Notes under the pieces: model-generated
The model's input: the letters and a program-made list of their open reading frames with translations, nothing else
The model's database searches: none
Told to the model about the DNA's origin: nothing
Assembly (NCBI GenBank): GCA_000990585.1
Contig: LBQD01000002.1
Coordinates: forward strand, 56,016 to 120,015
From: Candidatus Moranbacteria bacterium GW2011_GWE2_35_2-
Lineage (GTDB): Bacteria; Patescibacteriota; Minisyncoccia; Moranbacterales; UBA9337
DNA: 64,000 nt
Direction of reading: 5' to 3'
In this document: one piece after another, positions 6,846 through 56,885 of the stretch
Numbering within the stretch: the stretch's first letter is position 1
How the letters are laid out: each line of letters opens with the position of its first letter
Position numbers and translations under genes: made by a program

Positions 6846-7012
6846 AAGGTTTTTTAGTAAGCTTAGTAAATAATGATTATATTATAGCACAAATATAGAT
6901 AGCTTATGATATTATAAAATAAAAATAACAATATGTCAAGTATGCTTGGTATTTTTTACTCCCCCTCCCGAGCTATTTTTAATGCAAGTGTGATTATTAA
7001 AATAAACCATTA

Positions 7013-7714
7013 TTGTTCCACGTGGAACAATAATTACACAAAAACAATTTCTCGGAGTCATTTTTTATACTTGAATAGTTTAAATACAGATAAATGCTTA
7101 TTTTTATTAAATAAGAGGGTTAATTAATCTGAAAATATTTTAAAATTTTCTGCTATTTTTAGTATTATAGGTATTTCTGTTTAATTAATTGTTCCACGTG
7201 GAACAATATTGAAAATTACGCATTCGTATAGTAGCAGTATTTTTTTAAAAAACAATTGAGCCTCTTAGAATTTAATTGTTCCACGTGGAACAAGTTCAAT
7301 TCCGTTATAATTTTTCACGGAAAAATGAAAAATATTAATTTGTTAAGTAAAAAATAAAGCTGTTTATTTATATTTAATAAAAAAGCTTATTTTTTAATGT
7401 AAAAAACATTTAATATAGGAGTGGTAATAAATAAGAAGTTATTGTTCCACGTGGAACAATTTATAATAACAATATTTACAAAAAACAAACCTTATTGTAA
7501 ATATCTGTGTTGGTATGATAAAAATTAAATAATGTTAATTAGTTTAATATGCAATAATTCACTTTTTTCGGCCTAATGAATGTTTTTTAAATTTATAAAA
7601 TAAATTATTTTTTGTTTATAAATTTACAAAAGAGATTTTTTTGATAATAATTACGAGGCATATTTATAATTTAATATATTTTTTACTTCTATTGGATTGT
7701 TCCACGTGGAACAA
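7013..7714. repeat. Five dispersed perfect copies of the 18-bp palindrome TTGTTCCACGTGGAACAA (7013-7030, 7189-7206, 7276-7293, 7442-7459, 7697-7714) inside a ~1.1-kb AT-rich non-coding region
   Basis: Exact repeats read directly from the sequence. Spacers are irregular (86-254 bp) and not conserved, so this is not CRISPR-like. Confidence 0.9.
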
Positions 7715-7755
7715 TTTTTTAGAAAAATATTTTTTTAAAAATGAGATGAAAAAGG

Positions 7756-7967: not shown

Positions 7968-8040
7968 GGGCCATTAGCTCAATTGGTAGAGCGCTTCCAT
8001 GGCATGGAAGAGGTAGCCGGTTCGAATCCGGCATGGTCCA
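7968..8040 (+). tRNA. tRNA-Ala (anticodon GGC)
   Basis: Hand-folded cloverleaf: acceptor GGGCCAT with G3:U70 Ala identity pair; anticodon loop AT-GGC-AT; T-arm GGTTCGAATCC. Confidence 0.8.
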
Positions 8041-8159: not shown

Positions 8160-8231
8160 GCTCTCGTAGTTCAGTGGATAGAACAAGGGACTCCTAAGCC
8201 TTAGACGCAGGTTCAACTCCTGCCGAGAGCA
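8160..8231 (+). tRNA. tRNA-Arg (anticodon CCT)
   Basis: Acceptor GCTCTCG/CGAGAGC; D-stem GTTC/GAAC; anticodon loop CT-CCT-AA; T-arm GCAGG TTCAACT CCTGC. Confidence 0.7.
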
Positions 8232-9866: not shown

Positions 9867-10157
9867 TTATATTTTTCCGCGAAATTTCTCGTATTGGGGA
9901 AATTCGTCGAGAAATTTATTCTTCAACTTGGCGCGGAAGAAAAATCCTACTGCGTACACTAGAATAATAAGCAATGAACAACTGAAAAAAATGAAGATAT
10001 CAAGATTTACTTTGAGTGTAGATGCTATAATATCTCCTCCCAATCCTAACCCAAGTATTCCAAAGGTGAGCAGTAACCCCAAAATAATTTTGCAAGGACT
10101 GGAGTTATCTTCAAGATATTTGAGAAACTTTTCCTTTGCGATTTGCTCCGGATTCAT
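9867..10157 (-). CDS. Small hypothetical membrane protein
   Basis: 96-aa ORF with two hydrophobic segments (ILGLLLTFGILGLGLGG; SLLIILVYAVGFFF). Confidence 0.4.
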   Translation of the reverse strand: MNPEQIAKEKFLKYLEDNSSPCKIILGLLLTFGILGLGLGGDIIASTLKVNLDIFIFFSCSLLIILVYAVGFFFRAKLKNKFLDEFPQYEKFRGKI

Positions 10158-10194
10158 GGTTGTTCTCCTTTGTTTTTGGTGTTGCGAATAGAAT

Positions 10195-10401
10195 TCAACC
10201 TATTTTGTAAATTAATATCACGTTTCCGTTAGGAGATTTTTGATCTGCAATTAATTCTCCATTTATGATAATATCTCCATCGGTTAGGATAATCTTATCA
10301 CCAACTTTAGGAGAAAGAAATTGTTTTTCTTTAATACAAGCACAGAATCCGTATCGTAGTAATGATTGCATTTCATCAAACGTGATAGTTTTAGTTATCA
10401 T
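10195..10401 (-). CDS. Small hypothetical protein
   Basis: 68-aa ORF, divergent from the TrmB-like regulator; no motif recognised. Confidence 0.3.
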   Translation of the reverse strand: MITKTITFDEMQSLLRYGFCACIKEKQFLSPKVGDKIILTDGDIIINGELIADQKSPNGNVILIYKIG

Positions 10402-10592
10402 ACCCCCTCCTGTAGCATGTTTTTAGTAGTAAAACCCCTTCTTATTAAAGAACCTGAAAATATAACACCTTACAATGTGAGTGTCAATATGGATTGTTTT
10501 AGTTTTCAAAGTATTTATCGATTTGACTTAATTTAAGGGATAAATTAGTATATAAATAACGACGAAAATTATCGTCATTAATATATTCTGAC

Positions 10593-11333
10593 ATGAATTT
10601 AAAAGAAAGACTTAAACAACTGGATTTAGGCGAAAAGGAAATCGAAGTTTATATTTCAATACTTAAGCAAAAGCAAACCACGATCACTAGAATTGCCGAT
10701 TCAGCAGGGATCAAAAGAACTTCGGTTTACCATTGTTTGGAAAATTTGATTAAAAAAGGCTTGATAAGCAGAATAAGCAAAGATGGCAGGAATTATTATA
10801 ACGCGGAAGATCCTAAGGAAAGTTTTAGTAATATTTTGAATGAAAAAAAGGAAATCATATTGTCATTGATTCCGAAAGTAAAAGAAATATATGGACAGTC
10901 TGGGAGTTTTCCTGAAATAAAGATTTATCATAATTTGGCGGGAATTAAGAAGATATTTGAAGATCTTTTGTCATGCAAAGAAAAAATCAATAGATATTAT
11001 CTGTCCGGATTTTTATTGGAAGGTATTCTGGGAAAAGAATTTGTCGATGATTTTGTAATGAAGAGAGTAAAAAAGGGAATTAAAAGTTTCTCTTTGCGAA
11101 CGTTTGCGTATAAACCTGAAAGGGAGAAAGGAGAAATACATTCTAAGCAGCTTCGCGAAGTAAGATTTATTCCGGAAAATGTCATCATAAAGCCATATAT
11201 GGTGATTTATGATGACAAGGTGGTTGTAATTTCCACCAAAGAGGAGAAAATCGGCTTTGTGATTCAATCCAAGGAATATGCTGATGCGCAAAAGGCTCTG
11301 TTTGATATGATTTGGAACAATGCAGCGATTTAG
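10593..11333 (+). CDS. TrmB-family HTH transcriptional regulator (paralog 1 of 3)
   Basis: N-terminal winged helix LGEKEIEVYISILKQKQTTITRIADSAGIKRTSVYHCLENLIKKGLI. Its C-terminal domain ends in a shared FDMIWNN-type motif. Confidence 0.65.
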   Translation: MNLKERLKQLDLGEKEIEVYISILKQKQTTITRIADSAGIKRTSVYHCLENLIKKGLISRISKDGRNYYNAEDPKESFSNILNEKKEIILSLIPKVKEIYGQSGSFPEIKIYHNLAGIKKIFEDLLSCKEKINRYYLSGFLLEGILGKEFVDDFVMKRVKKGIKSFSLRTFAYKPEREKGEIHSKQLREVRFIPENVIIKPYMVIYDDKVVVISTKEEKIGFVIQSKEYADAQKALFDMIWNNAAI

Positions 11334-12042: not shown

Positions 12043-12642
12043 ATGTTAAATTATACTAAAATTATGTCGAAAATGGCTAAAAAACTGAATATTTTACATC
12101 AAAGCGGGCAAACGGTTTTTTCTACCAATGAGCTGATGCTACATTGGAGTATCGAAAATAAAAAGATTTTGTATACTCAAATTTCCCGCGCCAAAGAGCA
12201 AGGTTTTTTGAGAACAATCCAGCGAGGTTTGTATGCTCTGGATGGTTTGGAAGTTGACAGACTGGAGTTGGCGGGAAACCTGAAAAAAAAATCGTACATA
12301 AGTTTTGAAACTGTCCTGGCAAAAAACGGATTAATCAACCAGTGGTACGGTTCATATTTTTTGGCATCGGACAGGGAAGCGGATATTGAAAATGAGTATG
12401 GAAAATTCAATTACAGAAAACTGTCTGAAAAGATTTTGAATAATCGTTTGGGGATAATCGATAGCGGTCATTATTTTACAGCTGGCACCGAAAGAGCTAT
12501 CTGCGATTATTTTTACAAAGTCGGCTTTCAACAGCTTGATGACTTGGAGGAAATCGACCAAAACAAGCTTATTGAAATATCTAAAATTTATCACAATAAA
12601 AGGTTGGAAAAAGATATTTTAAAATTAACTAAATTGTTATGA
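12043..12642 (+). CDS. Putative AbiEi-like antitoxin / transcriptional regulator, partner of the nucleotidyltransferase below
   Basis: 199-aa ORF whose stop overlaps the start of the AbiEii-like gene (ATGA overlap). Position and size fit type IV TA antitoxins; no strong motif recognised. Confidence 0.45.
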   Translation: MLNYTKIMSKMAKKLNILHQSGQTVFSTNELMLHWSIENKKILYTQISRAKEQGFLRTIQRGLYALDGLEVDRLELAGNLKKKSYISFETVLAKNGLINQWYGSYFLASDREADIENEYGKFNYRKLSEKILNNRLGIIDSGHYFTAGTERAICDYFYKVGFQQLDDLEEIDQNKLIEISKIYHNKRLEKDILKLTKLL

Positions 12643-13355
12643 AATTGGACAAAAGCGAACACAGAAGAATAATGCTAAAAATATTGGGAGATATTTCAGC
12701 CGATCCTCTCCTGGCCAATAATCTTGGTTTTAAAGGCGGCACTGCCTGTTATTTTTTGCATGGTTTGGATCGATTTTCAGTCGATCTTGATTTTGATTTG
12801 CTAGACAAAGAAAGGGAAGAGGAAATAAAAAAACGTCTTTTGGAAATTTTGAGTAAATATGGGTCAATCAAAACAAAAACTGCTATTAAGGTCAGGTATT
12901 CCGATGATTGTCAGGCTTTGAAAATAGATCTTTCAAACAGATATGAAAACAACAAGCGGAATAAATATCAAGTCAAGGATATAGTCTCGGGAATATCCTT
13001 GAAAGTTTTGCGCAAAGAAGATATTTTTGCCCATAAATTGGTGGCGCTCACTGACAGGAGCGCTTCCGGTCAAAGTGGCACTGCTTTTATCGCAAATCGC
13101 GATTTGTATGATATTTATTTTTTCTTCAAAAACGGATGGCATTATAACAAAGAAATTATTGAGTATCAAACAAATAAAAAAGTTAAAGATTATTTGGGAT
13201 ATGCCTCTAAGTTTATAGAAAAATATTCCAACGAGTCGAATATTTTGGACAGACTCGGAGATTTGGTGGATGATGAAAAAAAAGATTGGGTTAAAAAAAA
13301 TCTGAAAAGCGAAATATTGAAACAGTTGGCGATAGAAGTTAAATCATTGGATTAA
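12639..13355 (+). CDS. AbiEii/DUF1814-family nucleotidyltransferase toxin (type IV TA / abortive infection)
   Basis: Signature LGFKGGTACYFLHGLDRFSVDLDFDLLD matches the conserved GGTAL...RFSxDLDF motif of AbiEii nucleotidyltransferases. Confidence 0.7.
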   Translation: MKLDKSEHRRIMLKILGDISADPLLANNLGFKGGTACYFLHGLDRFSVDLDFDLLDKEREEEIKKRLLEILSKYGSIKTKTAIKVRYSDDCQALKIDLSNRYENNKRNKYQVKDIVSGISLKVLRKEDIFAHKLVALTDRSASGQSGTAFIANRDLYDIYFFFKNGWHYNKEIIEYQTNKKVKDYLGYASKFIEKYSNESNILDRLGDLVDDEKKDWVKKNLKSEILKQLAIEVKSLD

Positions 13356-17208: not shown

Positions 17209-18069
17209 TTGACAATTTTATCGTTGTTTGTTAAGATGGCAGTAAATATGAGCCTAGAAAAAGACCTACAATCTATCGGCCTGGAAGAAAAAGAAGCCAA
17301 AATATACTTGGCCGCTCTTGAGCTTGGGTCGACCAATATCCAAGATCTGGCCGAAAAGGCGGACATCAAGCGCAGTACGGTCTATGAGATTTTGAAAAAA
17401 CTTGAGCCGATGGGTCTGATTACCGAATCCATCAAGGGTAAAAGGAAAACATACATCGCTTCCGGACCGGAAAAACTCAAAAAAAATATCAAAGAAAAAG
17501 AACAACTCATAAATCATATCCTTCCCGAGCTAAAATCTTTAAACAACACCGGAAATATAAAACCTAAGATAACTTATTACGAAGGCCGAGACGGACTCCG
17601 ACAAATTTATAATCTAGCGCTCGAAACCACCACTAAAAAAGTTGACTGGGTTTCGCCTATTCGGGCAGTCATGGACACGGTGGGTGAAAAGTTTCTAGAA
17701 GAATATATCGAAAAAAGAGCCAAGGAAAAATATTGGATCCGATCTATCCAAATCACTGAGCAACAAGTCGACACATACAAATATTTGGACCCAACAACTT
17801 TTGACAAAACCTACCGCCGCGTAAAATTTTCTCCGCCTGGCATCGATATTCCCAACACTATGGCTATTTGGGATAACAAAGTAGCTGTTATTAGCACCCG
17901 AAAAGAAGGATTTGGCTTCATCATTGAAAGCACTGACTATACCCGCTCCATGAAAGTTTTCTACGATCTCCTTTGGAACATCAGCAAATCCTGGGGCAAC
18001 ATGGATTTCAACAACAAAAACCCGCAAAATTCCGAGTTGACTGAAAAAGATGATACTTATTGGAAATAA
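17209..18069 (+). CDS. TrmB-family HTH transcriptional regulator (paralog 2 of 3)
   Basis: N-terminal wHTH LEEKEAKIYLAALELGSTNIQDLAEKADIKRSTVYEILKKLEPMGLI. C-terminal region ends in FYDLLWN, like the other paralogs. Confidence 0.65.
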   Translation: MTILSLFVKMAVNMSLEKDLQSIGLEEKEAKIYLAALELGSTNIQDLAEKADIKRSTVYEILKKLEPMGLITESIKGKRKTYIASGPEKLKKNIKEKEQLINHILPELKSLNNTGNIKPKITYYEGRDGLRQIYNLALETTTKKVDWVSPIRAVMDTVGEKFLEEYIEKRAKEKYWIRSIQITEQQVDTYKYLDPTTFDKTYRRVKFSPPGIDIPNTMAIWDNKVAVISTRKEGFGFIIESTDYTRSMKVFYDLLWNISKSWGNMDFNNKNPQNSELTEKDDTYWK

Positions 18070-18233: not shown

Positions 18234-18851
18234 ATGCGAAAACCCTCCTTTTCAAAAAAATCACAGAATCTGCTTGAAAACTTCATCGAATCCGACACCT
18301 TCACTGCCACTGCCGGCAAATTTTTATTAATGACCTTAGCGTTAGGTGGAATTGTTTTTGCCGGAGCACTTGCTCCCGGCATCCTGCTGGCCACAAAAAA
18401 GAAAAAGCATTTTCATAAATACAATCCCAAACAGCTTCAAAATGCTATCTATAATCTCAAGAAGAGAAATCTAATTGAAATCATTCAAGAGGGTAACACC
18501 AAAACAAAAGTCCGTCTCACTAACAAGGGCAATGAGCGAGTCCGCGAATTTTGTTTTGAGACATTGAGGATAACCAAACCGAAGCGCTGGGACAAAAAAT
18601 GGCGGATTCTGATCTTTGATATACCCACCAGCCCTAAGATATATAACCAGGCACGCAATGCATTGCGAGAAAAAATAAAAAAACTGGGTTTCTACCAGAT
18701 GCAAAAAAGCGTTTGGGTCTGCCCCTATGAATGCGAGGATGAGATTCTTTTTGTCGCCGAAGCCTTTAGTGTTCAAAAATATATCGAGATTATCACCGCT
18801 GAAAAACTTCTGCATGAAAATTACCTCAAGAAAAAATTCAACTTAAACTAA
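18234..18851 (+). CDS. Hypothetical protein with an N-terminal TM segment, a winged-helix-like region and a C-terminal PaaX-like region (tentative)
   Basis: TM FLLMTLALGGIVFAGALAPGILLA; wHTH-like NLKKRNLIEIIQEGNTKTKVRLTNKG; C-terminal WRILIFDIPTSPK...LGFYQMQKSVWVCPYE resembles PaaX_C / Cas2-like folds. Assignment is by resemblance only. Confidence 0.35.
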   Translation: MRKPSFSKKSQNLLENFIESDTFTATAGKFLLMTLALGGIVFAGALAPGILLATKKKKHFHKYNPKQLQNAIYNLKKRNLIEIIQEGNTKTKVRLTNKGNERVREFCFETLRITKPKRWDKKWRILIFDIPTSPKIYNQARNALREKIKKLGFYQMQKSVWVCPYECEDEILFVAEAFSVQKYIEIITAEKLLHENYLKKKFNLN

Positions 18852-18974: not shown

Positions 18975-19046
18975 ATCCTCGAAACCGAACACGGAAAAGT
19001 CATGGTTAACATCACTCTCCTAAAATCCTTTCGCGGGAAATAAAAA
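18975..19046 (+). repeat. Repeat copy B: the same gene 3'-end fragment (…ILETEHGKVMVNITLLKSFRGK*) followed by a hairpin
   Basis: Aligns with 16187-16258. Its open frame is only 24 codons, so it is a remnant. Confidence 0.7.
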
Positions 19047-19158
19047 AGGTGGAGAACTGCGATGAGTTTTCCACCTTCTAGTAATCTCGATGAGAGAGGC
19101 AAGAAAGTTAGATTCAACTTTCTTGCCCAAACCACAATCACCTCTATTTTTAATCACC

Positions 19159-19440
19159 TTATTCAAATTTTATTCCTAATTGAACAAGCTTATTTCTTGC
19201 CGACTCCAGTATTTTTGTGGATTTCGTTAAATATAAGTGTGCGTTATTAGCTCTTTCTTGAGAACATTTTAACTCATATTCTAATCCACACAGACCATCA
19301 GCTTGTTGCTGCAGGCGCCCTTCCAATCTTTCTAATCTATATTCAAAATATTTTTTATCGCGTTCAACTTTACTTCTAGCCATCTCGAATTCATCTATTA
19401 AGGACTTAATTTCACTAAAAAATAATCTTGGTCTTAGCAT
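19159..19440 (-). CDS. Hypothetical coiled-coil protein
   Basis: 93-aa ORF rich in heptad-like E/K/R/L pattern (RLERLEGRLQQQADGL...). Confidence 0.35.
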   Translation of the reverse strand: MLRPRLFFSEIKSLIDEFEMARSKVERDKKYFEYRLERLEGRLQQQADGLCGLEYELKCSQERANNAHLYLTKSTKILESARNKLVQLGIKFE

Positions 19441-19610
19441 TGTTTTGCTCCTGTAGTTGAGGTGATTTTAAAGGAACTGCTTGTCATGATTCTTTTCCTG
19501 TTCTCATCATAACTCTATAGTATAGCACCATTTGGACACTATTTCAATAGTTTACTTGATATTTTAGTAATTCTGTGCTAAACTTGATATATAAGTATAA
19601 GATTTAAAAA

Positions 19611-20657
19611 ATGAACCTCACTGAACTCGACAAAAAAATCCTTTTTGAACTGGACAAGGACGGCCGGGCTAGTTTTTCCGAAATTGCCCGCATAATCGGT
19701 TCTACGCCTCAAGTCGTGAAATACCATTTTGAGCAGATGATGGAAAAAGGCTTTATCAAGCACTTTTGGGCTTTCACCGACTACGACAAGCTGGATTATT
19801 CTTTCTTTTGGGGCTATTGGCTGAAATTCGCTGGCCTAACCAAAGACAAGGAAACTGAGATGTATGCCTATTTCAACGCTCACCAGAACATTCCGATTAT
19901 CCAGCGCGCTGATGGCTACGCCGATGTTTTGATCGGAATTATTAGTCGTGACATTTTCCATCACAATGAAGTCTTGCAAGACATTTTTTCTAAATACGGC
20001 CAATTCATCACCATGTCCGATATTTTCATTGGCCTTGGTTTTGTGAAATTCCCTCGCACATATCTCGGCAATAAACCTAATGAATTCCAAAAATTCGCTC
20101 TGTCCGGCGGAACCACCGAAAAAATCAAACTGGCTGAAATTGATCGCAAAATTATTTCCTTGCTTTTGATTGACGGACGAATGGAATTTACTAAAATCGC
20201 CAAAACTTTGGGCGTTGGCACCGGTCTGGTGCACAAACATTATAATAAGCTGGAAAAAAGTGGCGTTATTACCAAAATAACTTTTACTTTAGATTATCAA
20301 AAAATCGGACTCATACTTTATCGCTGTTGCTTTAAACTCGTACAATTTGATCAAGCTCGCATTGATGAGTTATATAAATTCTGTTGCCTGCATCCCAACA
20401 TCATCAACTATGTCAAGGGAATAGGAAGCTGGGAACTACTTCTGGACATTGAAGTAGAAAACCGCGAAGCTTTGCGTGATATCATTCGCGAACTCAAAAA
20501 CCAATTCCGCGATGTCATCCAAAAAGTCGAAATCAATGAAATCTACCAAATGGACAAATTCACCCAAATGGCCATCGAATATCCCGACTTGAAAAATGAA
20601 AAGGGAAATGATAGGAAGGAAGAGCAAAATGATAAGAATGATCATTATTGGGATTAG
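19611..20657 (+). CDS. Transcriptional regulator with tandem duplicated Lrp/AsnC-type HTH modules
   Basis: Two copies of the AsnC-like HTH signature: LDKKILFELDKDGRASFSEIARIIGSTPQVVKYHFEQM and IDRKIISLLLIDGRMEFTKIAKTLGVGTGLVHKHYNKL. Confidence 0.6.
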   Translation: MNLTELDKKILFELDKDGRASFSEIARIIGSTPQVVKYHFEQMMEKGFIKHFWAFTDYDKLDYSFFWGYWLKFAGLTKDKETEMYAYFNAHQNIPIIQRADGYADVLIGIISRDIFHHNEVLQDIFSKYGQFITMSDIFIGLGFVKFPRTYLGNKPNEFQKFALSGGTTEKIKLAEIDRKIISLLLIDGRMEFTKIAKTLGVGTGLVHKHYNKLEKSGVITKITFTLDYQKIGLILYRCCFKLVQFDQARIDELYKFCCLHPNIINYVKGIGSWELLLDIEVENREALRDIIRELKNQFRDVIQKVEINEIYQMDKFTQMAIEYPDLKNEKGNDRKEEQNDKNDHYWD

Positions 20658-29852: not shown

Positions 29853-32384
29853 TTAGGATATTTTTTCAAGAACGATATAGCGAATATCACCAGCTTCTTT
29901 TTTATTTTGAAAATAGCGAGTAAGTTTGTATTTTGATTGATTATTTTGAGTGGTATCTTGTAGGGAATTATCTTTTTCTGGCAGTGTTATTTTTAGCGTT
30001 TTTTTGAATTGCAGGATGTCTGTTTTCATATCAAAACGCAAAATGACAGTTTCCCTCCCTAATAGATTTTCTAAGTTTGCTGAATTTTTGGCGTTGCGGG
30101 TCATTTCTTCTTTTTCTTTGGAATCTGTTCCTTCATTGCGATAGGTGTATTTTTTGTTTTCTGTCGTGTCGGCCGTGATTGTTAAAAGAGGTTCGCCTGT
30201 ATTTTGATAATTTAAAATTATTCCATCAGCAATAAATCCAAATTTTTCGATATATTGTGATGTAATTAATTCTTGTGGAATGGCCGCGGCTTTGATATTT
30301 TTCTTTTTGCCTTCTGTTTTAACGGCATTGTCTAGCATTAAATTTCCAAGTTTGAGGTTTTGCAGTCCTGGAGCGACATTAAATGATCCGAAATATAATA
30401 TGTTATCATCAATTTTTTTGAATTTCAAAAAAGCTATTACTTTTCCCTTATAGCGCAAAACGTAGTATTTTTGACCGGCAGAATTTTCCAATTCTTTTTC
30501 TAAGCTGGAAATAATAGCCGAATGCATTTTTTCATTGCGTTGCCAATTCTCGTCAGCCATTTCTAGCATTTCTTTTTTGTCATTTTCATCCAATTCTTCT
30601 CCAAATCCGGAAATATCCAAATCCAAATCGCGGATCATTTCAAAATTGATTCCCTGTCCGGATTCTTGAAGGGATTTTAGCAGGGAAGACAAGATGGTTA
30701 TTTCCGAACGTTTCAGTCGCAGATTATCTATTAGTTCCGCCAATGTGGCTCTATCCGCTCCATTTCCGATGTTTTCTGAAAATCCGGTTATAATTGAACG
30801 GGCTTCTTTGAGAAGTTGTAATTTTATAGATGAACTTATGTCGAAATTCGCATTTTTTAAGAGCGTTTTTCCGATTTCCGCCGATTCCTTTTCTGCTAGA
30901 TCGATTATTTCAGCGACCTTTTCAAAAATCATAACGGCATCCTTTTTGGACATTTTTTCTCCGATATTCAGAATCTTTTTACTATCCTGCAAATCAAATT
31001 CGCAACTCAAAAAAGCTTTCAATCCGTCGAGTTTGTAATTATTCGCAAAAGAATATAATCTTTCCATTTCTCCTGAAAAACTCAGGTCATATGCGGCGGC
31101 GGCCAGCCATTGTTGTTCTCTCCAAGTAAGGTTGTGTATGCCGATGCCTGTTTTGGCGGAAAAATCGCCGGTGATTTTTTGGATAAAATCATAACTCTTG
31201 ATGGTTTGTAATCTTTTCGCGTAGTTCTCGGAGCTTTCTTCTTTTCTTTTTGGATTTTCTTGGGTGATATCCCAAGGGTAAATCCGGTCCAATGTTTCTT
31301 GTTTGTCCAAGATTGTGTACATCGTTACTTTGAAACCGTCTGGTATCTTTTTTTTATCTATTATTTCTTGTCTTTTTTTATTTTTTTCCTCTTCATCCAA
31401 AAGGTGAATGATATATTTTACTTCTTTGTAGTCTTGATTATTGGCTATGATTCCCGCTTTGTTTTTTTCCAATAGGACTACGGTTATGTTTTTTGCAGAT
31501 ATTCCTTTGAGCAGGGGCAATCCCAACGCTTTCTTGCCAATGGCATAGCGAACCCCATCTAAAGAAATATCGTAGCCTATTTCAGACAAGGGAATTTCTC
31601 TTCTTTGGATTTCGCCGCCTTTTTTTGTCGTGGCAAAGTGAAAGTCTGCCAATTTCAGCAATCCGCTGGTCAACAGGTTTTGACATTGGGTCGCAAGGGT
31701 TGTATGTGGATTTTGGTGGAAAGCTTCTTTCCCTTCGCCCAAATTGCCGATGTTTTTTCTTGTCCATTGGGCGGTTAATTTCGTGAAGTCTCCTTTTTCT
31801 TTGTCAAAAACAAGCAGGTTGCCGTCCGCATCCCTTCGTCCTTGATGATTTCGAAATATTTCAGTTGCCAAAGCCATTTCTTTTGTGCCGATTTCATCCC
31901 CATTTTCGGCTTTGATCCGGTATGACCATTTGCCGCCTAAATTTTTTCTGCCAGGCGCGGCGTATTGATCCCAATAGTTCAAATGATATTTTCCGTTCTT
32001 TATGTTATCCAAATCAAAAGCGGCTGCTTTGCTGGCGGGAACATTGAATAGTGGCATCGCTTCCGGCAACGGCTGGTTGTTCTGCCGTGCGTCGTCGTAG
32101 TCTTTTTTGGATATGACGGGCAAATTTCCCAACTGTTCAAAAAATAGTTGATAGACGTTGGAGCAATTGCGTCCATCCAGCGGGATTTCCTTTTCTTCGC
32201 AAATATTTTTTGAAACGGGCAATGTGGTGAATTTTTCCAAATCCAAAACCGGGAATCCCTCATGAAATTCCAATGATCCATTCTCTTGCAAAATTTCCAA
32301 AATTTTTTCGCGCGCTGATTCTTGTTTTTCTGCCCCGCGTTCTTGAGCGGGAATTTTCACACTGGGGAATTCAAAGGGTTTCAT
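29853..32384 (-). CDS. Large hypothetical protein (843 aa) with a C-terminal GNAT-like acetyltransferase domain
   Basis: C-terminal KYYVLRYKGKVIAFLKF...SFNVAPGLQNLKLGNLML...YIEKFGFI resembles the GNAT core (Q/R-x-x-G-x-G/A). No motif recognised in the N-terminal ~600 aa. The codon/GC style shifts within the gene: 5' half about 43-50% GC, 3' half AT-rich. Confidence 0.5.
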   Translation of the reverse strand: MKPFEFPSVKIPAQERGAEKQESAREKILEILQENGSLEFHEGFPVLDLEKFTTLPVSKNICEEKEIPLDGRNCSNVYQLFFEQLGNLPVISKKDYDDARQNNQPLPEAMPLFNVPASKAAAFDLDNIKNGKYHLNYWDQYAAPGRKNLGGKWSYRIKAENGDEIGTKEMALATEIFRNHQGRRDADGNLLVFDKEKGDFTKLTAQWTRKNIGNLGEGKEAFHQNPHTTLATQCQNLLTSGLLKLADFHFATTKKGGEIQRREIPLSEIGYDISLDGVRYAIGKKALGLPLLKGISAKNITVVLLEKNKAGIIANNQDYKEVKYIIHLLDEEEKNKKRQEIIDKKKIPDGFKVTMYTILDKQETLDRIYPWDITQENPKRKEESSENYAKRLQTIKSYDFIQKITGDFSAKTGIGIHNLTWREQQWLAAAAYDLSFSGEMERLYSFANNYKLDGLKAFLSCEFDLQDSKKILNIGEKMSKKDAVMIFEKVAEIIDLAEKESAEIGKTLLKNANFDISSSIKLQLLKEARSIITGFSENIGNGADRATLAELIDNLRLKRSEITILSSLLKSLQESGQGINFEMIRDLDLDISGFGEELDENDKKEMLEMADENWQRNEKMHSAIISSLEKELENSAGQKYYVLRYKGKVIAFLKFKKIDDNILYFGSFNVAPGLQNLKLGNLMLDNAVKTEGKKKNIKAAAIPQELITSQYIEKFGFIADGIILNYQNTGEPLLTITADTTENKKYTYRNEGTDSKEKEEMTRNAKNSANLENLLGRETVILRFDMKTDILQFKKTLKITLPEKDNSLQDTTQNNQSKYKLTRYFQNKKEAGDIRYIVLEKIS

Positions 32385-32631
32385 AGTTTTTTGGCTAGGC
32401 CTTATTTACTGATCTTATTTTATCACGCAAACAAAAACCGGCATAATTTCGCAGGGCAATCAGCGGGAATTGGAATAATGTTCCCAAGAGAGAGATTTGG
32501 AAAATCGTCCGAAATCCCTCCTTGCTCTGCGAAATTGCACCGATTTGAACCTTCTAAGAAGTTGCATGAAAATGCAAGCTCTATTGAAGTGGCAAGCGGT
32601 CAGATGACGCGCTTGCCCAAGTCTTTTTGTT

Positions 32632-33270
32632 CTATGCCAAATGCATGGCTCTGGCAAAATTCCAGTAGGCCAAAAAGTCTTTGTCGGCATTGGCATCAGC
32701 GTGCCAATCCGACATTTCCGGGTTGGTGATTTTTTTCTCATCGTACTCTTCAGATGAGAATGTCACATACCACGGATGGAGGTACCGGAACTCCTCCTTT
32801 ATATAGAGGAGTGTTTCCCGACGCTTTTTATTTAGGGGCGTCAGTCTGTGGTACGGAAGTTTTTCCAGGATGTCCTCATACATAGAGGGCATCGGAACTC
32901 CAGTTTCGTGCGCGCCAATAAAAATAGACGCATAGCAATCCAATGTATGAAATGCTATCGACACAAGAAGATCCCTCTTGTAATCAAGATCCCCAATCAT
33001 CTCAATTACAATCTTCCCAGTTACGCAGTCAGTGTCAGCATGACACCACAGCTCGTTGCCACTGAGATCGAGTGTCATTTCTGACCTTAAAACAGCTAAG
33101 GCCTTTTCAACCCCCTTTAGAATTCGCGGAGCGAATTTCCTTGTGGACAGGGACTCTCGTGACGTGACGTATCCCTTGACGCAATCATAACCAATTTGAT
33201 GCAAGAGGATTTCTTGCTCGGAAAGGTTATTTAAAGAGGAGGCTAAACGTTTAATCCTTCTTTTATTCAT
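32632..33270 (-). CDS. Hypothetical protein (GC-rich, Shine-Dalgarno-bearing; island gene)
   Basis: 212-aa ORF; RBS CCAGGAGAATACCATC-ATG; GC about 47% versus ~33% background. Confidence 0.45.
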   Translation of the reverse strand: MNKRRIKRLASSLNNLSEQEILLHQIGYDCVKGYVTSRESLSTRKFAPRILKGVEKALAVLRSEMTLDLSGNELWCHADTDCVTGKIVIEMIGDLDYKRDLLVSIAFHTLDCYASIFIGAHETGVPMPSMYEDILEKLPYHRLTPLNKKRRETLLYIKEEFRYLHPWYVTFSSEEYDEKKITNPEMSDWHADANADKDFLAYWNFARAMHLA

Positions 33271-33437
33271 GATGGTATTCTCCTGGAAGTATGTTGTTTT
33301 TAAGAAACTGAATGGCTACTATGAAATTTCGATATGTGTATCAAAGTTTCAATAATAGGGTGAACTTGTTAAATTACAACAAGTTCACCTTTAAGATATT
33401 TTTTATTTTGACTCAGAAATTTTCAAAAACTGAGTTC

Positions 33438-33947
33438 TTACAGTTCTAGCGTGAACTTCGAGGGGGCCAACTTTTCGTCCTCAAGATATTCATCGAGGAC
33501 AAAAATTGTTGCGCCGTCAGTTTTTTTGATGGCATATAACCCCAGCCAGATTAGTTCAAACACTTCCTGCTGCTGTTCTACTGGAATCACCTCCTTTAGT
33601 TTAGTCCAGAGCTTACTTTCTGGGATTTCAATAAAAGGAACTGTCGGGTCGATTTCTCCGACACCTTTCAGCGCTTTTTCAAAAAGCGACTCAAAGAGCC
33701 AAAGATCATCTTCCTCGAGCGTTGTTTCCGCCACGAGCTGGATATTAATCCTTAACGGATCAAATATCCCAAAACCCAAGTACGTTCCCTTTCTTCCATG
33801 CCAGTCGTTTTTTCTTTGGAAATAAAGTTCCCAAGAAAAATTCTGCTCTGGTTTCTCTTCTGCCCTCACCGTGGAAAAAGCCTTTCTATTAGGGGATGAG
33901 TTGAAGGCGTCGACTGCTTTGGCAAGGGCTTCTTTATAGTTTTTCAT
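33438..33947 (-). CDS. Hypothetical protein (island gene)
   Basis: Start trimmed to the ATG at 33945-33947, which is preceded by AAAAAGGAGAAAAAGTCC; 169 aa; acidic C-terminal half. Confidence 0.4.
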   Translation of the reverse strand: MKNYKEALAKAVDAFNSSPNRKAFSTVRAEEKPEQNFSWELYFQRKNDWHGRKGTYLGFGIFDPLRINIQLVAETTLEEDDLWLFESLFEKALKGVGEIDPTVPFIEIPESKLWTKLKEVIPVEQQQEVFELIWLGLYAIKKTDGATIFVLDEYLEDEKLAPSKFTLEL

Positions 33948-34004
33948 GGACTTTTTCTCCTTTTTGTTTTTTCTTCTACAAAAATACAAATTATTTGTAT
34001 TCTT

Positions 34005-34048
34005 GATTAAAGGGGAAAGTTTTAAGCTAACTTTTCCCTTGAGTTTTA
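34005..34048. repeat. Intergenic hairpin element, copy 1 (TTGATTAAAGGGGAAAG...CTTTTCCCTT)
   Basis: One of three related palindromic elements (also 34423-34468 and 34937-34985) with the shared 5' box TTATTGAAGrGGCAAG and 3' box CTTGCCCGT, sitting between island genes. None is followed by a T-run on the transcribed strand. Confidence 0.6.
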
Positions 34049-34366
34049 CGCGAGGTTTCGAGACTCAGCTGTGATTTTTTTATACCAACCATATCCACCC
34101 CATAGCTCCTTTTCTCCTATTTTTAAGCTTGAGGGTCCATCATAGCCCAGATGGATTTCAGCTTCGAAGTTAGTGCGAGGGGCATCTTCCCCCAGGATTT
34201 TCATCGTTTCTTTTTTAAGGAATGACTCGTATCCTATTCCCGAAGTGTTTACGGGTGGTATCTGTCCAGTGTGCCAGTCCTTACGGAGTTGACGGAGTGT
34301 TCCGTCATAGAGGTATTCGTATTCTCCGTTACTATCGTCATCGTCTACATACAGTATTCTTAGCAT
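34046..34366 (-). CDS. Hypothetical protein (island gene)
   Basis: 106-aa ORF with AAGGAG RBS. Confidence 0.4.
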   Translation of the reverse strand: MLRILYVDDDDSNGEYEYLYDGTLRQLRKDWHTGQIPPVNTSGIGYESFLKKETMKILGEDAPRTNFEAEIHLGYDGPSSLKIGEKELWGGYGWYKKITAESRNLA

Positions 34367-34422
34367 AGGTCACTCCTTTTTAGTAATTGGGTTTTATAAT
34401 GATGAATTTTGATGGAACGTAA

Positions 34423-34468
34423 CTTTTTATTGAAGAGGCAAGAGCGAATTATTTCGCTCTTGCCCGTA
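34423..34468. repeat. Intergenic hairpin element, copy 2 (TTATTGAAGAGGCAAGAGCG...CGCTCTTGCCCGT)
   Basis: See copy 1. Confidence 0.65.
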
Positions 34469-34469
34469 G

Positions 34470-34877
34470 CTAGAGGATTTCACCTATGACGTCAACATGC
34501 TCAAACTCATCCTCCCAGACATAGCGACAATCGTCGCATACACAACCCATCTTTTTAAAGACAGATTGTATTTTTTTTAGCAGTTTTTTGCCAACACCGC
34601 TTTCTGCGCCAATAAAGACGCCGGCGTTGACCTCGACTTCTATCTCGTGATATACGCGAGATACAGTCAATCCACTCATCAGCGTACACTCCTCCGGGTT
34701 AGTGCTTATTTTGCAACTAGAGTTGCATATTTTGCAGATAAGCGTGGGGTTATCAAAAATCTGCTCCTCAACACAAATCGGTATGGAGTAGGTGGTTTTT
34801 CCGATTTTGATTCCCACCTTCCTATTCATGGCGTAGTATTGCTTATCGATGACAATAGGGGATGTTGTTTTCTTCAT
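34470..34877 (-). CDS. Hypothetical Cys-rich protein (putative zinc ribbon)
   Basis: CxxC-type pairs: ICKICNSSCK...EEC and GCVCDDC; AGGAG RBS. Confidence 0.4.
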   Translation of the reverse strand: MKKTTSPIVIDKQYYAMNRKVGIKIGKTTYSIPICVEEQIFDNPTLICKICNSSCKISTNPEECTLMSGLTVSRVYHEIEVEVNAGVFIGAESGVGKKLLKKIQSVFKKMGCVCDDCRYVWEDEFEHVDVIGEIL

Positions 34878-34936
34878 GGCGTATCTCCTCTTTCTGGTTT
34901 TTTTGAAGGTACTTCTGAAAATTTATATTCCGACAA

Positions 34937-34985
34937 TATAAACTTTATTGAAGGGGCAAGTAGCTATTTAGCCTTTTGCCCGTTT
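34937..34985. repeat. Intergenic hairpin element, copy 3 (TTATTGAAGGGGCAAG...CTTTTGCCCGT)
   Basis: See copy 1. Confidence 0.65.
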
Positions 34986-35022
34986 TTTTCACCTCCTTTA
35001 CCAGTTTTTTTGGAGGAATTTT

Positions 35023-35316
35023 TCATCCGTTTGTTTTTTTGGAGAACATTAGTTTACTTGGATTTTCTTCGTCTGATAGAAATAAATATGCATCAACTTT
35101 TATTTGCTGTCTATATTTGTTATTGATTACAGCTGTGTTTGATTCATAATTATATCCACAAAAGTGGATATTGTGTGCTTTTTTCCAATTTATCCACCCA
35201 TCATCATCTAAGATGTATAATTCTCCTTTTTGGTGTTGTTTGTTAAGATTTTTTTTTGAGCCAAAAAAACTCCAAATCAAATTTATTTCTTCACCTATAA
35301 TAAGAACATTTATCAT
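35023..35316 (-). CDS. Hypothetical protein (island gene)
   Basis: 97-aa ORF with AGGGAGG RBS 7 nt upstream of the ATG. Confidence 0.35.
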   Translation of the reverse strand: MINVLIIGEEINLIWSFFGSKKNLNKQHQKGELYILDDDGWINWKKAHNIHFCGYNYESNTAVINNKYRQQIKVDAYLFLSDEENPSKLMFSKKTNG

Positions 35317-35565
35317 GATATTTCCTCCCTATTTTTTTAATGTGCTTTTTGCCAAGACCTATCTTTTCGCTCTCTCATCTTGACTCCGCAGTATAGCAGA
35401 TATTTTCCAAATTGTCAATAATATGTGGCTAAAAATAGAGCATATTTCACTAAATTCCTATAAAAAGCCAAAAGATTATGTGAAAAATAGGCATAAAATT
35501 GTCATAACAAATTGACAAAATACTTTTTATTTAATATAATAAAGATATAAAATAGAAAAAAAATT

Positions 35566-36327
35566 ATGTTTGAACAGTCATTGATTCAATTAGGTTTGAG
35601 CTATACGCAGGCGGCAGTTTATGAAGCCTTGCTTAAAAGTGGCCCATTGCCGGCTGGAAAGATTGCCAAGAAAACTGAATTTAAAAGAGGATTGATATAT
35701 AAAATATTGGAAGAATTGGGGGAAAGCGGACTAATTGAGAAAAAAGAAGAAGAAAATAAGGTGGCGATTTTTGAGGTAAAACACCCTTTGCAATTGCGTG
35801 ATTTTGCTGAAAAAAAGCAACAAGAGGCGCGGGATGCCAAGTTGGCGTTGGAAGGAGTTTTACCAGCAATTGTTTCCGAATTCAATTTGGTGTCGCAAAA
35901 ACCGGGGATTTTGTTTTTTGAAGGGGAAGAAGGTATCAGAGAAGTGTTGGCAGATTCCCTTAGTAGTCGTAGTGAAATTTATACTTATGCTGATATGGAA
36001 TCAGTGGTTAAATATATGGATAAGATAAATAAAGATTATGTTAAAAAGAGAAATAAGCTGGGATTAAAAAAGAAAGTTGTGATGATTGATAATGAATTTA
36101 CCAGAGAGTATATGAAAAAGTATTATAAAGAGACGACTGATGTTCGATTTATTGATCATGAATTATACCCATTCAGTGCGCTTACAGAAATATATGATGG
36201 AACAATTTCATATGTGACTGCGGAAAAAGAGAATAAGATTGGAGTTATCATTAAGAATGAAAGTATATATAAAATGCAAAAAGCACTTTTTGAGTTCGTC
36301 TGGAATAATGCAAAAAAAATAGATTAA
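35566..36327 (+). CDS. TrmB-family HTH transcriptional regulator (paralog 3 of 3)
   Basis: wHTH LSYTQAAVYEALLKSGPLPAGKIAKKTEFKRGLIYKILEELGESGLI; C-terminal FEFVWNNAKK motif shared with the paralogs; followed by terminator 36343-36370. Confidence 0.65.
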   Translation: MFEQSLIQLGLSYTQAAVYEALLKSGPLPAGKIAKKTEFKRGLIYKILEELGESGLIEKKEEENKVAIFEVKHPLQLRDFAEKKQQEARDAKLALEGVLPAIVSEFNLVSQKPGILFFEGEEGIREVLADSLSSRSEIYTYADMESVVKYMDKINKDYVKKRNKLGLKKKVVMIDNEFTREYMKKYYKETTDVRFIDHELYPFSALTEIYDGTISYVTAEKENKIGVIIKNESIYKMQKALFEFVWNNAKKID

Positions 36328-38106: not shown

Positions 38107-39255
38107 ATGTATACTAGAATTTACAAGCCGAATAAAGACTTGAATCAAAGTTTTTTCTTGTTTGGTCCGCGTGGAACGGGAAAAACCACGTGGTTGAAGG
38201 CTAATTTTCCCAAAGCGGTTTATTTGGATTTGCTGGAATCTAAATTAAACAGAATATTGATGGCTTCGCCTGAAAAATTGGAAAATTATATTCCAAGTGG
38301 CTATTTTGGTTGGATTATTATTGACGAAGTGCAAAAAATTCCCGCCCTTTTGAATGAAGTCCATCGTTTGATTGAAAGCAAGAAGTATAAGTTCATATTA
38401 ACCGGATCAAGCGCGCGAAGCTTGCGAAAAAAAGGAGTGGATTTGCTGGCGGGGCGGGCGCTGACATATTATTTTCATCCACTAGTCAGAAAAGAGTTGG
38501 GAGAAAAATTTTCACTTTTGTATTCATTGAAATATGGACAATTGCCGATGGCATATAATTCTTCAAATCCGGAAAAATTCCTGGATTCATATGTGCAGAC
38601 TTATTTGCAAGAAGAAATTTTGCAAGAGGGTTTGACTCGTAATATCGGCAATTTTACCAGATTTTTGGAAATAGCTTCTTTTTCACAAGGACAGGTTTTG
38701 AATATTTCTCAAATTGCCCAGGAAACTCAGTTGGAAAGAAAAACAGTGGAAAATTATTTTGGAATTTTAGAAGATTTGTTGATAGGTTTGCGCCTGCCGG
38801 TTTTTAACAAGCGCGCAAAAAGGAAGTTGATTGCTCACAGTAAATTCTATTTTTTTGACACTGGAGTGTTTCGATCGCTCCGTCCAACCGGTCCGCTTGA
38901 TAGCGAGGCGGAAATTGACGGACCGGCTATTGAAACTCTTTTTTTGCAGGAAATACGGTCACTTAATGATTATTTGGAATTGAATTATGAAATTTTTTAT
39001 TGGCGCTCGATAACAGGAGTGGAAGTTGACTTTGTGTTATATGGCGCGAAGGGCTTGTTGGCTTTTGAAATCAAGCGAAAAGCAAATATCAATAACAATG
39101 ACTTGAAGGGATTGAAAGCTTTCAAGAAAGATTATCCGGAAGCGAGGTGTTTTTTGTTTTGTTCTACGGATAAGCAGGAATATCGCGGAGATGTTACTAT
39201 AATGCCGATTGAAAAAGCCTTGGATGATATGGATAAAATCTTGCAGGGAAAGTAA
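38107..39255 (+). CDS. AAA+ ATPase of the COG1373 / DUF4143 family
   Basis: Walker A LFGPRGTGKTTWLK; Walker B IIIDEVQK; C-terminal DUF4143-like region YFFDTGV. Confidence 0.75.
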   Translation: MYTRIYKPNKDLNQSFFLFGPRGTGKTTWLKANFPKAVYLDLLESKLNRILMASPEKLENYIPSGYFGWIIIDEVQKIPALLNEVHRLIESKKYKFILTGSSARSLRKKGVDLLAGRALTYYFHPLVRKELGEKFSLLYSLKYGQLPMAYNSSNPEKFLDSYVQTYLQEEILQEGLTRNIGNFTRFLEIASFSQGQVLNISQIAQETQLERKTVENYFGILEDLLIGLRLPVFNKRAKRKLIAHSKFYFFDTGVFRSLRPTGPLDSEAEIDGPAIETLFLQEIRSLNDYLELNYEIFYWRSITGVEVDFVLYGAKGLLAFEIKRKANINNNDLKGLKAFKKDYPEARCFLFCSTDKQEYRGDVTIMPIEKALDDMDKILQGK

Positions 39256-39371
39256 GAGCAATTAGAAATCAATGGTGAACTCGCAAAGTTTCTGCGAGTT
39301 CACCCTATTATTGAAACCTTGATTTCCAATGATTTGAAAATCGAAGTTTCATTGTAGGAGTTTTTTTTAAA

Positions 39372-39472
39372 ATCAATAAAGTTTCGCAAAGCGGGGAAAG
39401 AGAGGATTTTTTCAGATCTCTCTCCTGAAATATTTTTTCTTTCCGCTAAATGCTTTGCGAAACTTTGTTGAT
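39372..39472. repeat. Large inverted repeat (~21-23-nt arms around a ~55-nt interior that is itself partly palindromic) upstream of the histidine kinase gene
   Basis: Arms are atcaaTaaagtttcgcaaagcgg and its near-complement ccgctaaatgctttgcgaaactttgttgat; the interior is gagagga...tctctcc. Confidence 0.7.
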
Positions 39473-56411: not shown

Positions 56412-56885
56412 GTGGACAAAATACTAGAAGAGAAGGTCGGAAACGAATGGAATCCTATTGTTTACGTCGACCGCACTGGCCGTCCTGCGTATCCGGATTT
56501 CGTAAAAGAGGTAAAACATTTGAAGCTCGAGCTTGTCGGTCCTACGGATTTCGATGTAAGAAAAATTGAGCTGTGGCTTCACTCCAAGCAGGTGAATGGT
56601 TGTGCCATAGGCACCGAGATCTACGAAGATCTTCTTACCAAGAAATTGCTTGAAGGCTGTCTCGGTTTCGCTGATCTTCAGGTTATACAGGAGAGAGGTA
56701 TCGGATTTTTTAGGAAGTACTTTTTTGGTAAATCAGTGTTCGGCTGGAAGTCTGTCGTTCTGGATTGTCGTGGCAGACTCAATGTCCCATATCTCTTCGA
56801 GGGTGGCGACGAGGTGGAATTGTTATGGCGCTGGCTTGACGATGACTTCTATTCCCACAACCCTGCCTTGCGTTTTGCAAATTAG
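56412..56885 (+). CDS. Hypothetical protein (GC-rich singleton with GTG start and strong RBS)
   Basis: 157-aa ORF; AGGAGG at 56398-56403, 8 nt before GTG; GC about 48%; followed by terminator 56950-56986. Confidence 0.45.
   Translation: MDKILEEKVGNEWNPIVYVDRTGRPAYPDFVKEVKHLKLELVGPTDFDVRKIELWLHSKQVNGCAIGTEIYEDLLTKKLLEGCLGFADLQVIQERGIGFFRKYFFGKSVFGWKSVVLDCRGRLNVPYLFEGGDEVELLWRWLDDDFYSHNPALRFAN

Follow-up and report, generated by a model that had tools for sequence, protein, structure and literature searches.

Layout and composition of the locus

We analysed a 64,000-nt stretch of the genome of Candidatus Moranbacteria bacterium GW2011_GWE2_35_2- (contig LBQD01000002.1; hereafter the window) and, within it, a locus at 29853-36327 in which small genes of unusual composition, each followed by a structured intercistronic element that we call R1, lie between a gene for a TrmB-family regulator and a gene for a large anchor protein. 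Five minus-strand open reading frames (ORFs), designated F, E, D, C and B, are co-oriented over 32632-35316; gene A follows on the same strand, and gene G lies upstream of F on the opposite strand. The locus is flanked by housekeeping genes (pgm, trpS, gyrA and ychF). An assembly error was excluded because the identical locus is present in at least 24 contigs from several samples.

The five genes F to B stand out by their translation signals. When a Shine-Dalgarno (SD) site is required to match AAGGAGGTGA over at least 5 nt at -20 to -4 from the start, all five carry one, compared with 3 of the 52 other genes called in the window (Fisher p=1.3e-5), which served as the comparison set for both SD sites and GC content. 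A first-pass annotation, made from the letters alone, had placed these five ORFs correctly and had rightly given each of them an AGGAG-type site. It had also taken SD-led hypothetical genes as the hallmark of an island; such genes are indeed enriched here, but three further SD-led ORFans lie elsewhere in the window (9867-10157, 19159-19440 and 56412-56885). The reported GC elevation is real for B-E (32632-34877), which at 0.43-0.45 rank first to second when set beside the remaining 52 genes (mean 0.364, sd 0.042; Mann-Whitney p=5e-5). However, the contrast is with an overall window GC of 0.362, not 45-50% versus ~33% as first given, and F is GC-poor (0.28). With several native genes at 0.42-0.43 and F in the opposite direction, GC alone was rejected as proof of foreignness. 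Gene A, thought at first to lead the island, comes last in transcriptional order, and its GC is elevated (0.43-0.45) over the 5' third, with 0.32 at the 3' end. Both A and G have a host-like composition and lack an SD site.

All five SD-led genes encode small proteins. F (35023-35316, minus strand, as are the other genes from E to A) specifies a 97-aa ORFan with a 35% identical homologue in a closely related locus, L033, and a ratio of non-synonymous to synonymous substitution rates (dN/dS) of 0.18. E (34470-34877) specifies a 135-aa protein with homologues at 65-66% identity in L033 and in a second close relative, L004 (dN/dS 0.17). Its eight cysteines, arranged as CxxC, two single Cys and CxCxxC rather than as the three CxxC motifs originally described, are all kept in the homologue, and from this pattern E is probably a zinc-binding protein; among 5.8 billion protein clusters it has one cluster besides that of L004. 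D (34046-34366) is a 106-aa acidic ORFan (pI 5.0) with a 30% identical homologue in L033, and C (33438-33947, ATG start at 33947) a 169-aa acidic ORFan with homologues in L004 (51%) and L033 (45%; dN/dS 0.16-0.27). B (32632-33270) has 212 aa and a GC of 0.45 and is treated below. The 843-aa protein A (29853-32384) consists of an N-terminal region of ~590 aa without assignment, which contains an invariant block (GIGIHNLSWREQQWL...FLSCE), a GNAT domain at ~612-740, recognised by fold and profile match, and a C-terminal extension; it has 14 homologues. Across A, B, C, E and F, dN/dS lies between 0.12 and 0.27, so that these are real genes under purifying selection. C, D, E and F match nothing in Pfam, PADLOC, PHROGs or NCBIfam, and hydrophobic segments are absent from all of B-F.

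A conserved locus with a variable slot

Related loci were collected from genome and metagenome collections with an alignment of A homologues, supplemented by exact look-up. This yielded ~18 distinct loci, all in Moraniibacteriota/Parcubacteria-type assemblies, and in nearly all of them a TrmB homologue adjoins the A homologue. They have a common frame, in which the TrmB gene is divergent from a TTGACA-17-TGnTATACT promoter that is followed by a conserved 5' hairpin and then by AAGGAG-led cargo. The cargo has a GC of 0.44-0.66 in hosts with a GC of 0.36-0.41, compared with 0.33-0.41 for the host genes, TrmB and A included, which lack SD sites. Two arrangements occur: TrmB<, >cargo, >A, as in the window, and A>, <TrmB, >cargo. 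What is conserved of the gene set is therefore the frame of TrmB and A, whereas cargo and order differ. This is plain in L005 and L008, which have the flank polA-fpg-DUF3048-holA in common and carry different cargo. Annotated cargo elsewhere comprises Radical_SAM+SAVED (L008, L020), Prok-E2/JAB/ThiF (L009), bpMoxR+VWA (L010) and MYG1 (L018), and conflict-type Pfam domains (SAVED, Prok-E2/JAB/ThiF, bpMoxR/VWA) occur in four loci. On this comparison of gene content, the flagged island represents the part of a lineage-specific locus that varies within a conserved frame, and not a one-off insertion.

A structured element follows every cassette

R1, ~80 nt long, is present in all five gaps, one after each of F, E, D, C and B, where a palindromic element had previously been noticed in three. 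It forms a GC-rich hairpin 1 and then a second hairpin, which stacks three helices and has a conserved AAU/UAG internal loop. Copies were located by cmsearch with a covariance model derived from an RNAalifold structure on an 8-copy alignment (window and two related loci). On the minus strand they lie between F and E (34875-34984; 96.4 bits, E=1e-21), between E and D (34364-34468; 59.7 bits, E=2.6e-12), between D and C (33945-34041; 67.1 bits, E=3e-14), between C and B (33268-33392; 27.3 bits, E=1e-4 to 5e-4) and after B (32506-32621; 78.3 bits, E=5e-17). The fourth copy represents a divergent subtype (GGTGAAC...GTTCACC and CTATTATTGA), which is also found after C in L004 and L033 and at window position 39271. 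There, a sixth copy lies outside the island on the plus strand (39271-39391; 23.3 bits, E=0.001-0.005), after a gene assigned by Pfam to the AAA_14/DUF4143 ATPases (38107-39255). With search filters off, the window contains five copies within 3 kb and one more in the remaining 61 kb. ATPase genes of the AAA_14/DUF4143 type recur beside or inside cassette loci (window 38107-39391; L013 1130-2266; L028 2991-4121 and 11961-13190; L037 1770-2534).

In total, 23 copies of R1 at E<0.01 were obtained from ten sources, and all 23 lie on the coding strand of the cargo. In their alignment 92.7% of cells pair, compared with 44-51% after a shift of the 3' partners by 1-3 columns; the former is a figure that has to be discounted somewhat because fitting the alignment to the model inflates pairing. 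Changes on both sides were seen for 27 of 28 pairs, and none of 500 shuffles reached the observed values. Compensatory changes are plain in the raw rows (CTTC/GAAG, TCAC/GTGA, CTAT/ATAG, TCTC/GAGA). G-U pairs outnumber A-C mismatches by 43:15 and the antisense strand scores only 16.7 bits against 96.4, both of which indicate folding of the sense strand. Rfam 15 contains no match to R1 or to the leaders described below, with only chance-level hits at E<=10 in 32200-35700, and only tRNAs pass the Rfam gathering threshold in the window and 15 loci. R1 would thus be a previously undescribed structured RNA motif with strong covariation and a tie to cassettes.

The tie is also seen in distant relatives. 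R1 lies directly upstream of remote homologues of B in L037, L038 and L039, all of which were found by protein search alone, and the homologue in L037 additionally stands behind the same promoter sequence as the island; this links the element to a cassette type across large evolutionary distances. In L039 (54-895), the B homologue, a gene resembling the N-terminal part of csx30, is preceded by cassettes for a small Cys-rich protein and for one that has a minimal nucleotidyltransferase-like motif (GGSRRFG...DVDILV), with an R1 copy between each and the next.

The R1 hairpins were considered as intrinsic terminators and ruled out, in keeping with the original description: hairpin 1 is followed by CUUCAAUA without a U-tract, whereas the terminators native to the window show the canonical order of A-tract, stem and T-tract. 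A lenient terminator scan was passed only by 33359-33389 in the divergent copy. Like mRNA-stabilising hairpins and the intercistronic palindromes of the repetitive extragenic palindrome and bacterial interspersed mosaic element (REP/BIME) type, R1 lies between the genes of one putative operon, has no U-tract and is repeated within the locus. Unlike them, it has a second, three-helix hairpin with conserved internal-loop bases and is confined to cassette loci (five of the six copies in the window lie inside 3 kb), and there is no RAYT transposase.

Single cassettes are exchanged between genomes

Gene order differs between the window (F-E-D-C-B-A) and its two close relatives, L004 (B-E-C-A) and L033 (F'-b95-D'-E-C-A). 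L004 and L033 are 97-100% identical at the nucleotide level from the R1 upstream of E through the R1 downstream of it; beyond this cassette, identity is 70-85% in C and A, and there is none upstream. The synonymous divergence (dS) between the two is 0.025 in E, compared with 0.54 in C and 1.19 in A. Between the window and these relatives, the intergenic elements retain 84-91% nucleotide identity, compared with 68-75% for coding sequence. Read together, these alignments indicate that single cassettes are exchanged between genomes, with breakpoints inside R1. A is itself a recombinant mosaic: over the N-terminal 600 residues L004 and L033 have 80-90% identity, while in the GNAT part the window groups with L033 (60-72%) to the exclusion of L004 (33-47%). 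The island-like composition of the 5' part of A is explained by exchanged tracts that run into the gene. Of the horizontally acquired operon that had been proposed, a co-oriented unit with one consensus promoter and a history of horizontal exchange remains; the one-off foreign island does not.

Such an array resembles an integron, either sedentary chromosomal or of the type of clusters of attC sites lacking an integron-integrase (CALIN). In an integron-like system, the R1 copies would be attC-like recombination sites, folded as single-stranded DNA, for a dedicated recombinase that is encoded elsewhere or of a new type, with the N-terminal ~590 aa of A as the obvious candidate. As in integrons, the cassettes are co-oriented without detectable promoters of their own and lie behind one upstream consensus promoter, a structured repeat whose fold is conserved more than its sequence lies 3' of every ORF, and a divergent gene heads the array. 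Gain, loss and reshuffling proceed cassette by cassette, with permuted order and one cassette exchanged at breakpoints within the elements. The A domain of unassigned fold moreover has invariant R, H, Y, E and W residues, and the order A>, <TrmB, >cargo found elsewhere is a circular permutation of that in the window.

The assignment to integrons nevertheless fails because there is no integrase and the repeat is not attC. The divergent gene encodes a TrmB regulator and not the IntI recombinase, there is no recombinase nearby, and the Pfam lists for the window locus (20-kb source) and the related loci contain no tyrosine or serine recombinase domain. An attC site is one imperfect hairpin that bears R''(RYYYAAC)...R'(GTTRRRY) as well as L boxes. 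R1, by contrast, consists of two separate hairpins without R/L boxes or a GTTRRRY core; its outer boxes are CTTC/GAAG, and its inner GTTTATA...TATAAAC stands in reverse order, so that R1 as attC was ruled out by architecture and consensus. The G-U wobbles favour the sense strand 3:1, as expected of RNA, which points to folding at the RNA level. Identity of 85-90% over ~90 nt would also suffice for ordinary homologous recombination. In further contrast to integrons, every cassette has a strong SD site in an otherwise SD-poor host, and a conserved 850-aa protein closes the array. On balance, we regard an integron-like system as unlikely.

Protein B is related to the N-terminal domain of Csx30

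The statement that no gene of the island belongs to a known family holds for C-F, which stayed orphans, but not for B. Residues 51-174 of B align with residues 39-179 of the Csx30 family over 112 columns (hhalign 98.9%, E=1.2e-17). B also matches the NCBIfam model CAS_csx30 (NF041234) at E=5.5e-11 and 42 bits, at profile positions 127-164, its most conserved stretch; this is below the curated cut-off of 125 bits and is not a full-length match. An exhaustive HMMER search with a B profile returned five further weak relatives, and all five match the Csx30 model at 4e-18 to 3e-96. One of these, P0023 (577 aa), is a full-length Csx30 (323 bits). B has a single close homologue among the 5.8 billion protein clusters, and in IMG/VR its alignment was too divergent for the scan made there.

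Csx30 is the Craspase substrate of type III-E CRISPR-Cas and an anti-sigma-like partner of CASP-sigma/RpoE and Csx31. B has its conserved N-terminal core, PYHRLxPLNxxRR...YLxPWY, but at 212 aa instead of ~560 aa it has neither the C-terminal domain nor the Csx29 cleavage site, and it sits in a cassette array of the Candidate Phyla Radiation (CPR) and not in a CRISPR locus. As judged from these alignments, B is a relative of the Csx30 N-terminal domain and not a Csx30, because it is without the C-terminal domain, the cleavage site and any CRISPR or sigma-factor neighbours. According to published work, the N-terminal fragment of Csx30 carries toxicity; it binds Csx31 and RpoE/CASP-sigma, a sigma factor of the extracytoplasmic function (ECF) type, which the full-length form blocks (bioRxiv 10.1101/2022.08.17.504292; PMC10028731). 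C, and an ORF upstream of the L037 homologue of B, were considered as degenerate ECF sigma factors and dropped, with no such match by Pfam at E<=1 or by PDB sequence search. As far as these searches show, B is the first indication of a stand-alone Csx30 N-terminal domain outside type III-E loci, and such a domain bears on the mechanism of Csx30 growth arrest.

Regulator, promoters and leaders

G (35566-36327, plus strand) encodes a 253-aa winged-helix regulator of the TrmB family (Pfam PF01978, E=1.6e-12, 47.6 bits against a cut-off of 25.6), as had been suspected of the gene divergent from the cassettes. Its GC is 0.34, and only its helix-turn-helix resembles PADLOC models (CasR/Csa3). It has a full consensus promoter, TTGACA-17-TATAAT (35512-35540, plus strand; promoter scan 12/12). 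The -35 box of this promoter is overlapped by an inverted repeat, TTGTCA-N8-TGACAA (35499-35518), a candidate operator at which a protein may bind; the TTGTCAAT and ATTGACAA k-mers of this region recur in 8-9 related loci. The cassettes are preceded by TTGACA-17-TGcTATACT with an extended -10 (35390-35418, minus strand; 11/12, TG present), which is also found in 13 related sequences representing 12 other loci. It is the sole consensus promoter (at least 11/12) upstream of F-E-D-C-B and A, and no individual promoters were detectable for the cassettes.

Downstream of this promoter, the 5' leader contains a hairpin, GUCAAGA...UCUUGGC with loop UGAGAGAGCGAAAAGAUAGG (35351-35384, minus strand). By eye, and without scoring, its stem varies on both sides, reading GTTATGA/TCATGAC at window position ~19500, ATCAAG/CTTGAT in L033 and GTTAAG/CTTAAC in L005, L008 and L016. 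A has a structured leader of its own (32385-32550, minus strand; inverted repeat I1), and the RNA fold of 32385-32640 gave z=-7.1. In it, a long-range helix (32435-32459 with 32522-32546) encloses a hairpin (32481-32502) whose loop, AUCUCUCUC, is predicted to be able to pair with the SD-like AAGGAGGGA. This leader is 88-90% identical to its counterpart in L004 and deleted in L033.

Much larger leaders occur in related loci, where 0.7-1.7 kb of non-coding sequence dense in hairpins separates the conserved promoter from the first cargo gene (L005 11560-12300; L008 10140-11070; L009 1800-3220; L010 11310-12080; also L016, L018, L020, L027, L028, L029 and L031). Their hairpin loops read GAGAGAG(A/C) or (G/A)UCUCUCU, those of L005, L008 and L020 have sequence blocks in common, and none matches an Rfam family. 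They may constitute a new large structured RNA, of which the window keeps only short remnants, at 35351-35384 and 32481-32502.

Proposed model and competing explanations

We propose, with a probability of roughly 60%, that 29853-36327 is a conserved, repressor-controlled locus of Moranbacteria-like Parcubacteria, with R1-separated, swappable cassettes whose products serve jointly in a conflict or stress response. The architecture emerges from the comparison of loci; repression, a role of R1 in RNA and the joint function are what we infer. G would repress the divergent promoters through the TTGTCA/TGACAA repeats until a signal arrives, and upon induction a single mRNA would carry the cassettes and A. 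In this mRNA, R1 could act on the sense strand as an intercistronic module for stabilising, processing or setting translation, and its sequence conservation would incidentally supply the homology at which cassettes swap. The cassette products might then act together: like Csx30, B might bind a sigma factor or some other component of transcription, and A might acetylate a target.

A defence or stress role is suggested by the likeness of B to Csx30, by the conflict-type cargo of other loci and by a layout gated by a regulator. It is the weakest part of the model, and the conflict or defence function originally suspected keeps indirect support of this kind from slot-mates and from the relation of B to Csx30. 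Secondary metabolism, suggested alongside it, was abandoned, as no biosynthetic domains are present. The locus resembles defence islands or hotspots with a dedicated regulator of the BrxR/CapW type in its conserved frame with variable, horizontally exchanged cargo, in its divergent winged-helix regulator, and in a slot that holds SAVED, E1/E2/JAB or MoxR-VWA genes in some genomes. Unlike in those hotspots, the regulator is of the TrmB and not the WYL type, and none of the window's cargo fits a PADLOC model. Described defence hotspots offer no counterpart to the structured RNA between cistrons, to the long leaders or to the contrast in SD sites and GC.

Several observations weigh against the proposed model. 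PADLOC returned nothing for A-F at E<=1, and Pfam and PHROGs nothing for B-F; most other cargo in the related loci has no Pfam family, and the term defence draws on 3-4 loci with conflict-type Pfam domains. Operon status, repression by the TrmB protein and an RNA-level role for R1 are likewise deduced from sequence. For B, the homology spans about 120-150 residues of the ~430-residue Csx30 N-terminal domain, and no ECF sigma factor/rpoE, csx29 (TPR-CHAT), csx31 or cas7-11 was found within 10 kb or among the scanned window genes. The structure model of B is weak (pLDDT 62.5), and Foldseek found no fold match in the PDB. Finally, the three close genomes all keep E, C, A and TrmB, as would also be expected of a stable lineage function rather than of arms-race cargo.

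The last point leads to a different explanation, a vertically kept lineage-specific regulon of ordinary physiology, for example one by which an episymbiont attaches to its host or adapts to stress, in which SD sites and GC reflect selection on expression and there is no link to defence. The retained genes are under purifying selection, and the locus is identical across the contigs and samples mentioned above. The lack of PADLOC matches and the two other places in the window where a winged helix-turn-helix (wHTH) regulator is divergent from SD-led ORFans would agree with it as well. However, in more distant loci with the same flanks the cargo is wholly replaced; exchange takes place at the level of cassettes, with dS 20-50 times below that of neighbouring genes; and cargo GC is alike (0.40-0.45) in hosts with a GC of 0.33, 0.36 and 0.45. 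Conflict-type domains occupy the slot elsewhere, and B is related to a CRISPR-associated effector. A purely physiological regulon therefore appears improbable.

A bolder idea is that Moranbacteria-type CPR have a gene-cassette system of their own, a repressor-gated platform that captures and shuffles SD-led cassettes at R1, as a new class of structured sites, through a novel recombinase (the unassigned domain of A) or through no dedicated enzyme, with the SD sites, in a host whose genes are otherwise without them, as a translational gate that silences imported, possibly toxic immune cargo until ribosomes or leader RNA change state; this is speculative, and we would not expect it to hold. A prophage or mobile-element remnant carrying morons or early genes is very improbable: the ORFans are small, acidic, SD-led and atypical in composition, but there is no PHROG match below E=0.01, 2.9 million IMG/VR contigs yielded nothing related to A or E, integrase, capsid and terminase genes are absent, as are att repeats, the locus lies among housekeeping genes, and the frame of TrmB and A is conserved across distant genomes.

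To our knowledge, CPR/Patescibacteria have tiny genomes and few recognised defence systems, and almost no gene-regulatory or mobile-element biology has been described for them. The recurring slot of the proposed locus (TrmB, promoter and A) could be used to mine CPR metagenomes for accessory or conflict genes that no current model detects.

Further regulator units and minor features in the window

Two more units in the window have a wHTH regulator divergent from SD-led ORFans, which makes the contrast between an SD-less core and SD-led accessory genes a property of the genome and not of the island only. In the first (9867-11333), a TrmB-family gene (10593-11333, plus strand) diverges from a promoter and a pair of small SD-led ORFs on the minus strand (~10401-10195 and 10157-9867), the latter encoding a membrane ORFan, and a canonical terminator closes the unit. 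In the second (19019-20657), a double winged-helix regulator (19611-20657, plus strand) is divergent from an SD-led 93-aa ORFan (19159-19440, minus strand). Its promoter and 5' hairpin (GTTATGA...TCATGAC, ~19470-19530) mirror those of the island, with compensatory changes in the stem. The unit is followed by a GGCAAG...CTTGCC hairpin that is a weak R1 match (E=0.23). An isolated SD-led ORFan at 56412-56885 (157 aa, GC 0.46, GTG start) resembles the island cargo in composition and has no family match. According to a published survey, the anti-SD motif is missing from 16S rRNA in about half of Parcubacteria (PMC9297842). The coexistence of SD-less core and SD-led accessory genes in one genome makes it testable how the ribosomes of such lineages choose mRNAs.

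Other features of the window are more remote from the locus. An AbiEi-like antitoxin and an AbiEii nucleotidyltransferase toxin, a type IV toxin-antitoxin or abortive-infection pair, are encoded at 12043-13355, at a distance of 20 kb from the island. A further TrmB-family gene lies at 17209-18069, and after it comes a gene for a protein with a PaaX-type Cas2-like domain (18234-18851). At 7009-7715, a perfect palindrome, ATTGTTCCACGTGGAACAAT, is repeated five times inside a 1.1-kb stretch with a GC of 0.22, just upstream of two tRNA genes (7968-8040 and 8160-8231); this set could be an operator or an origin-like array.

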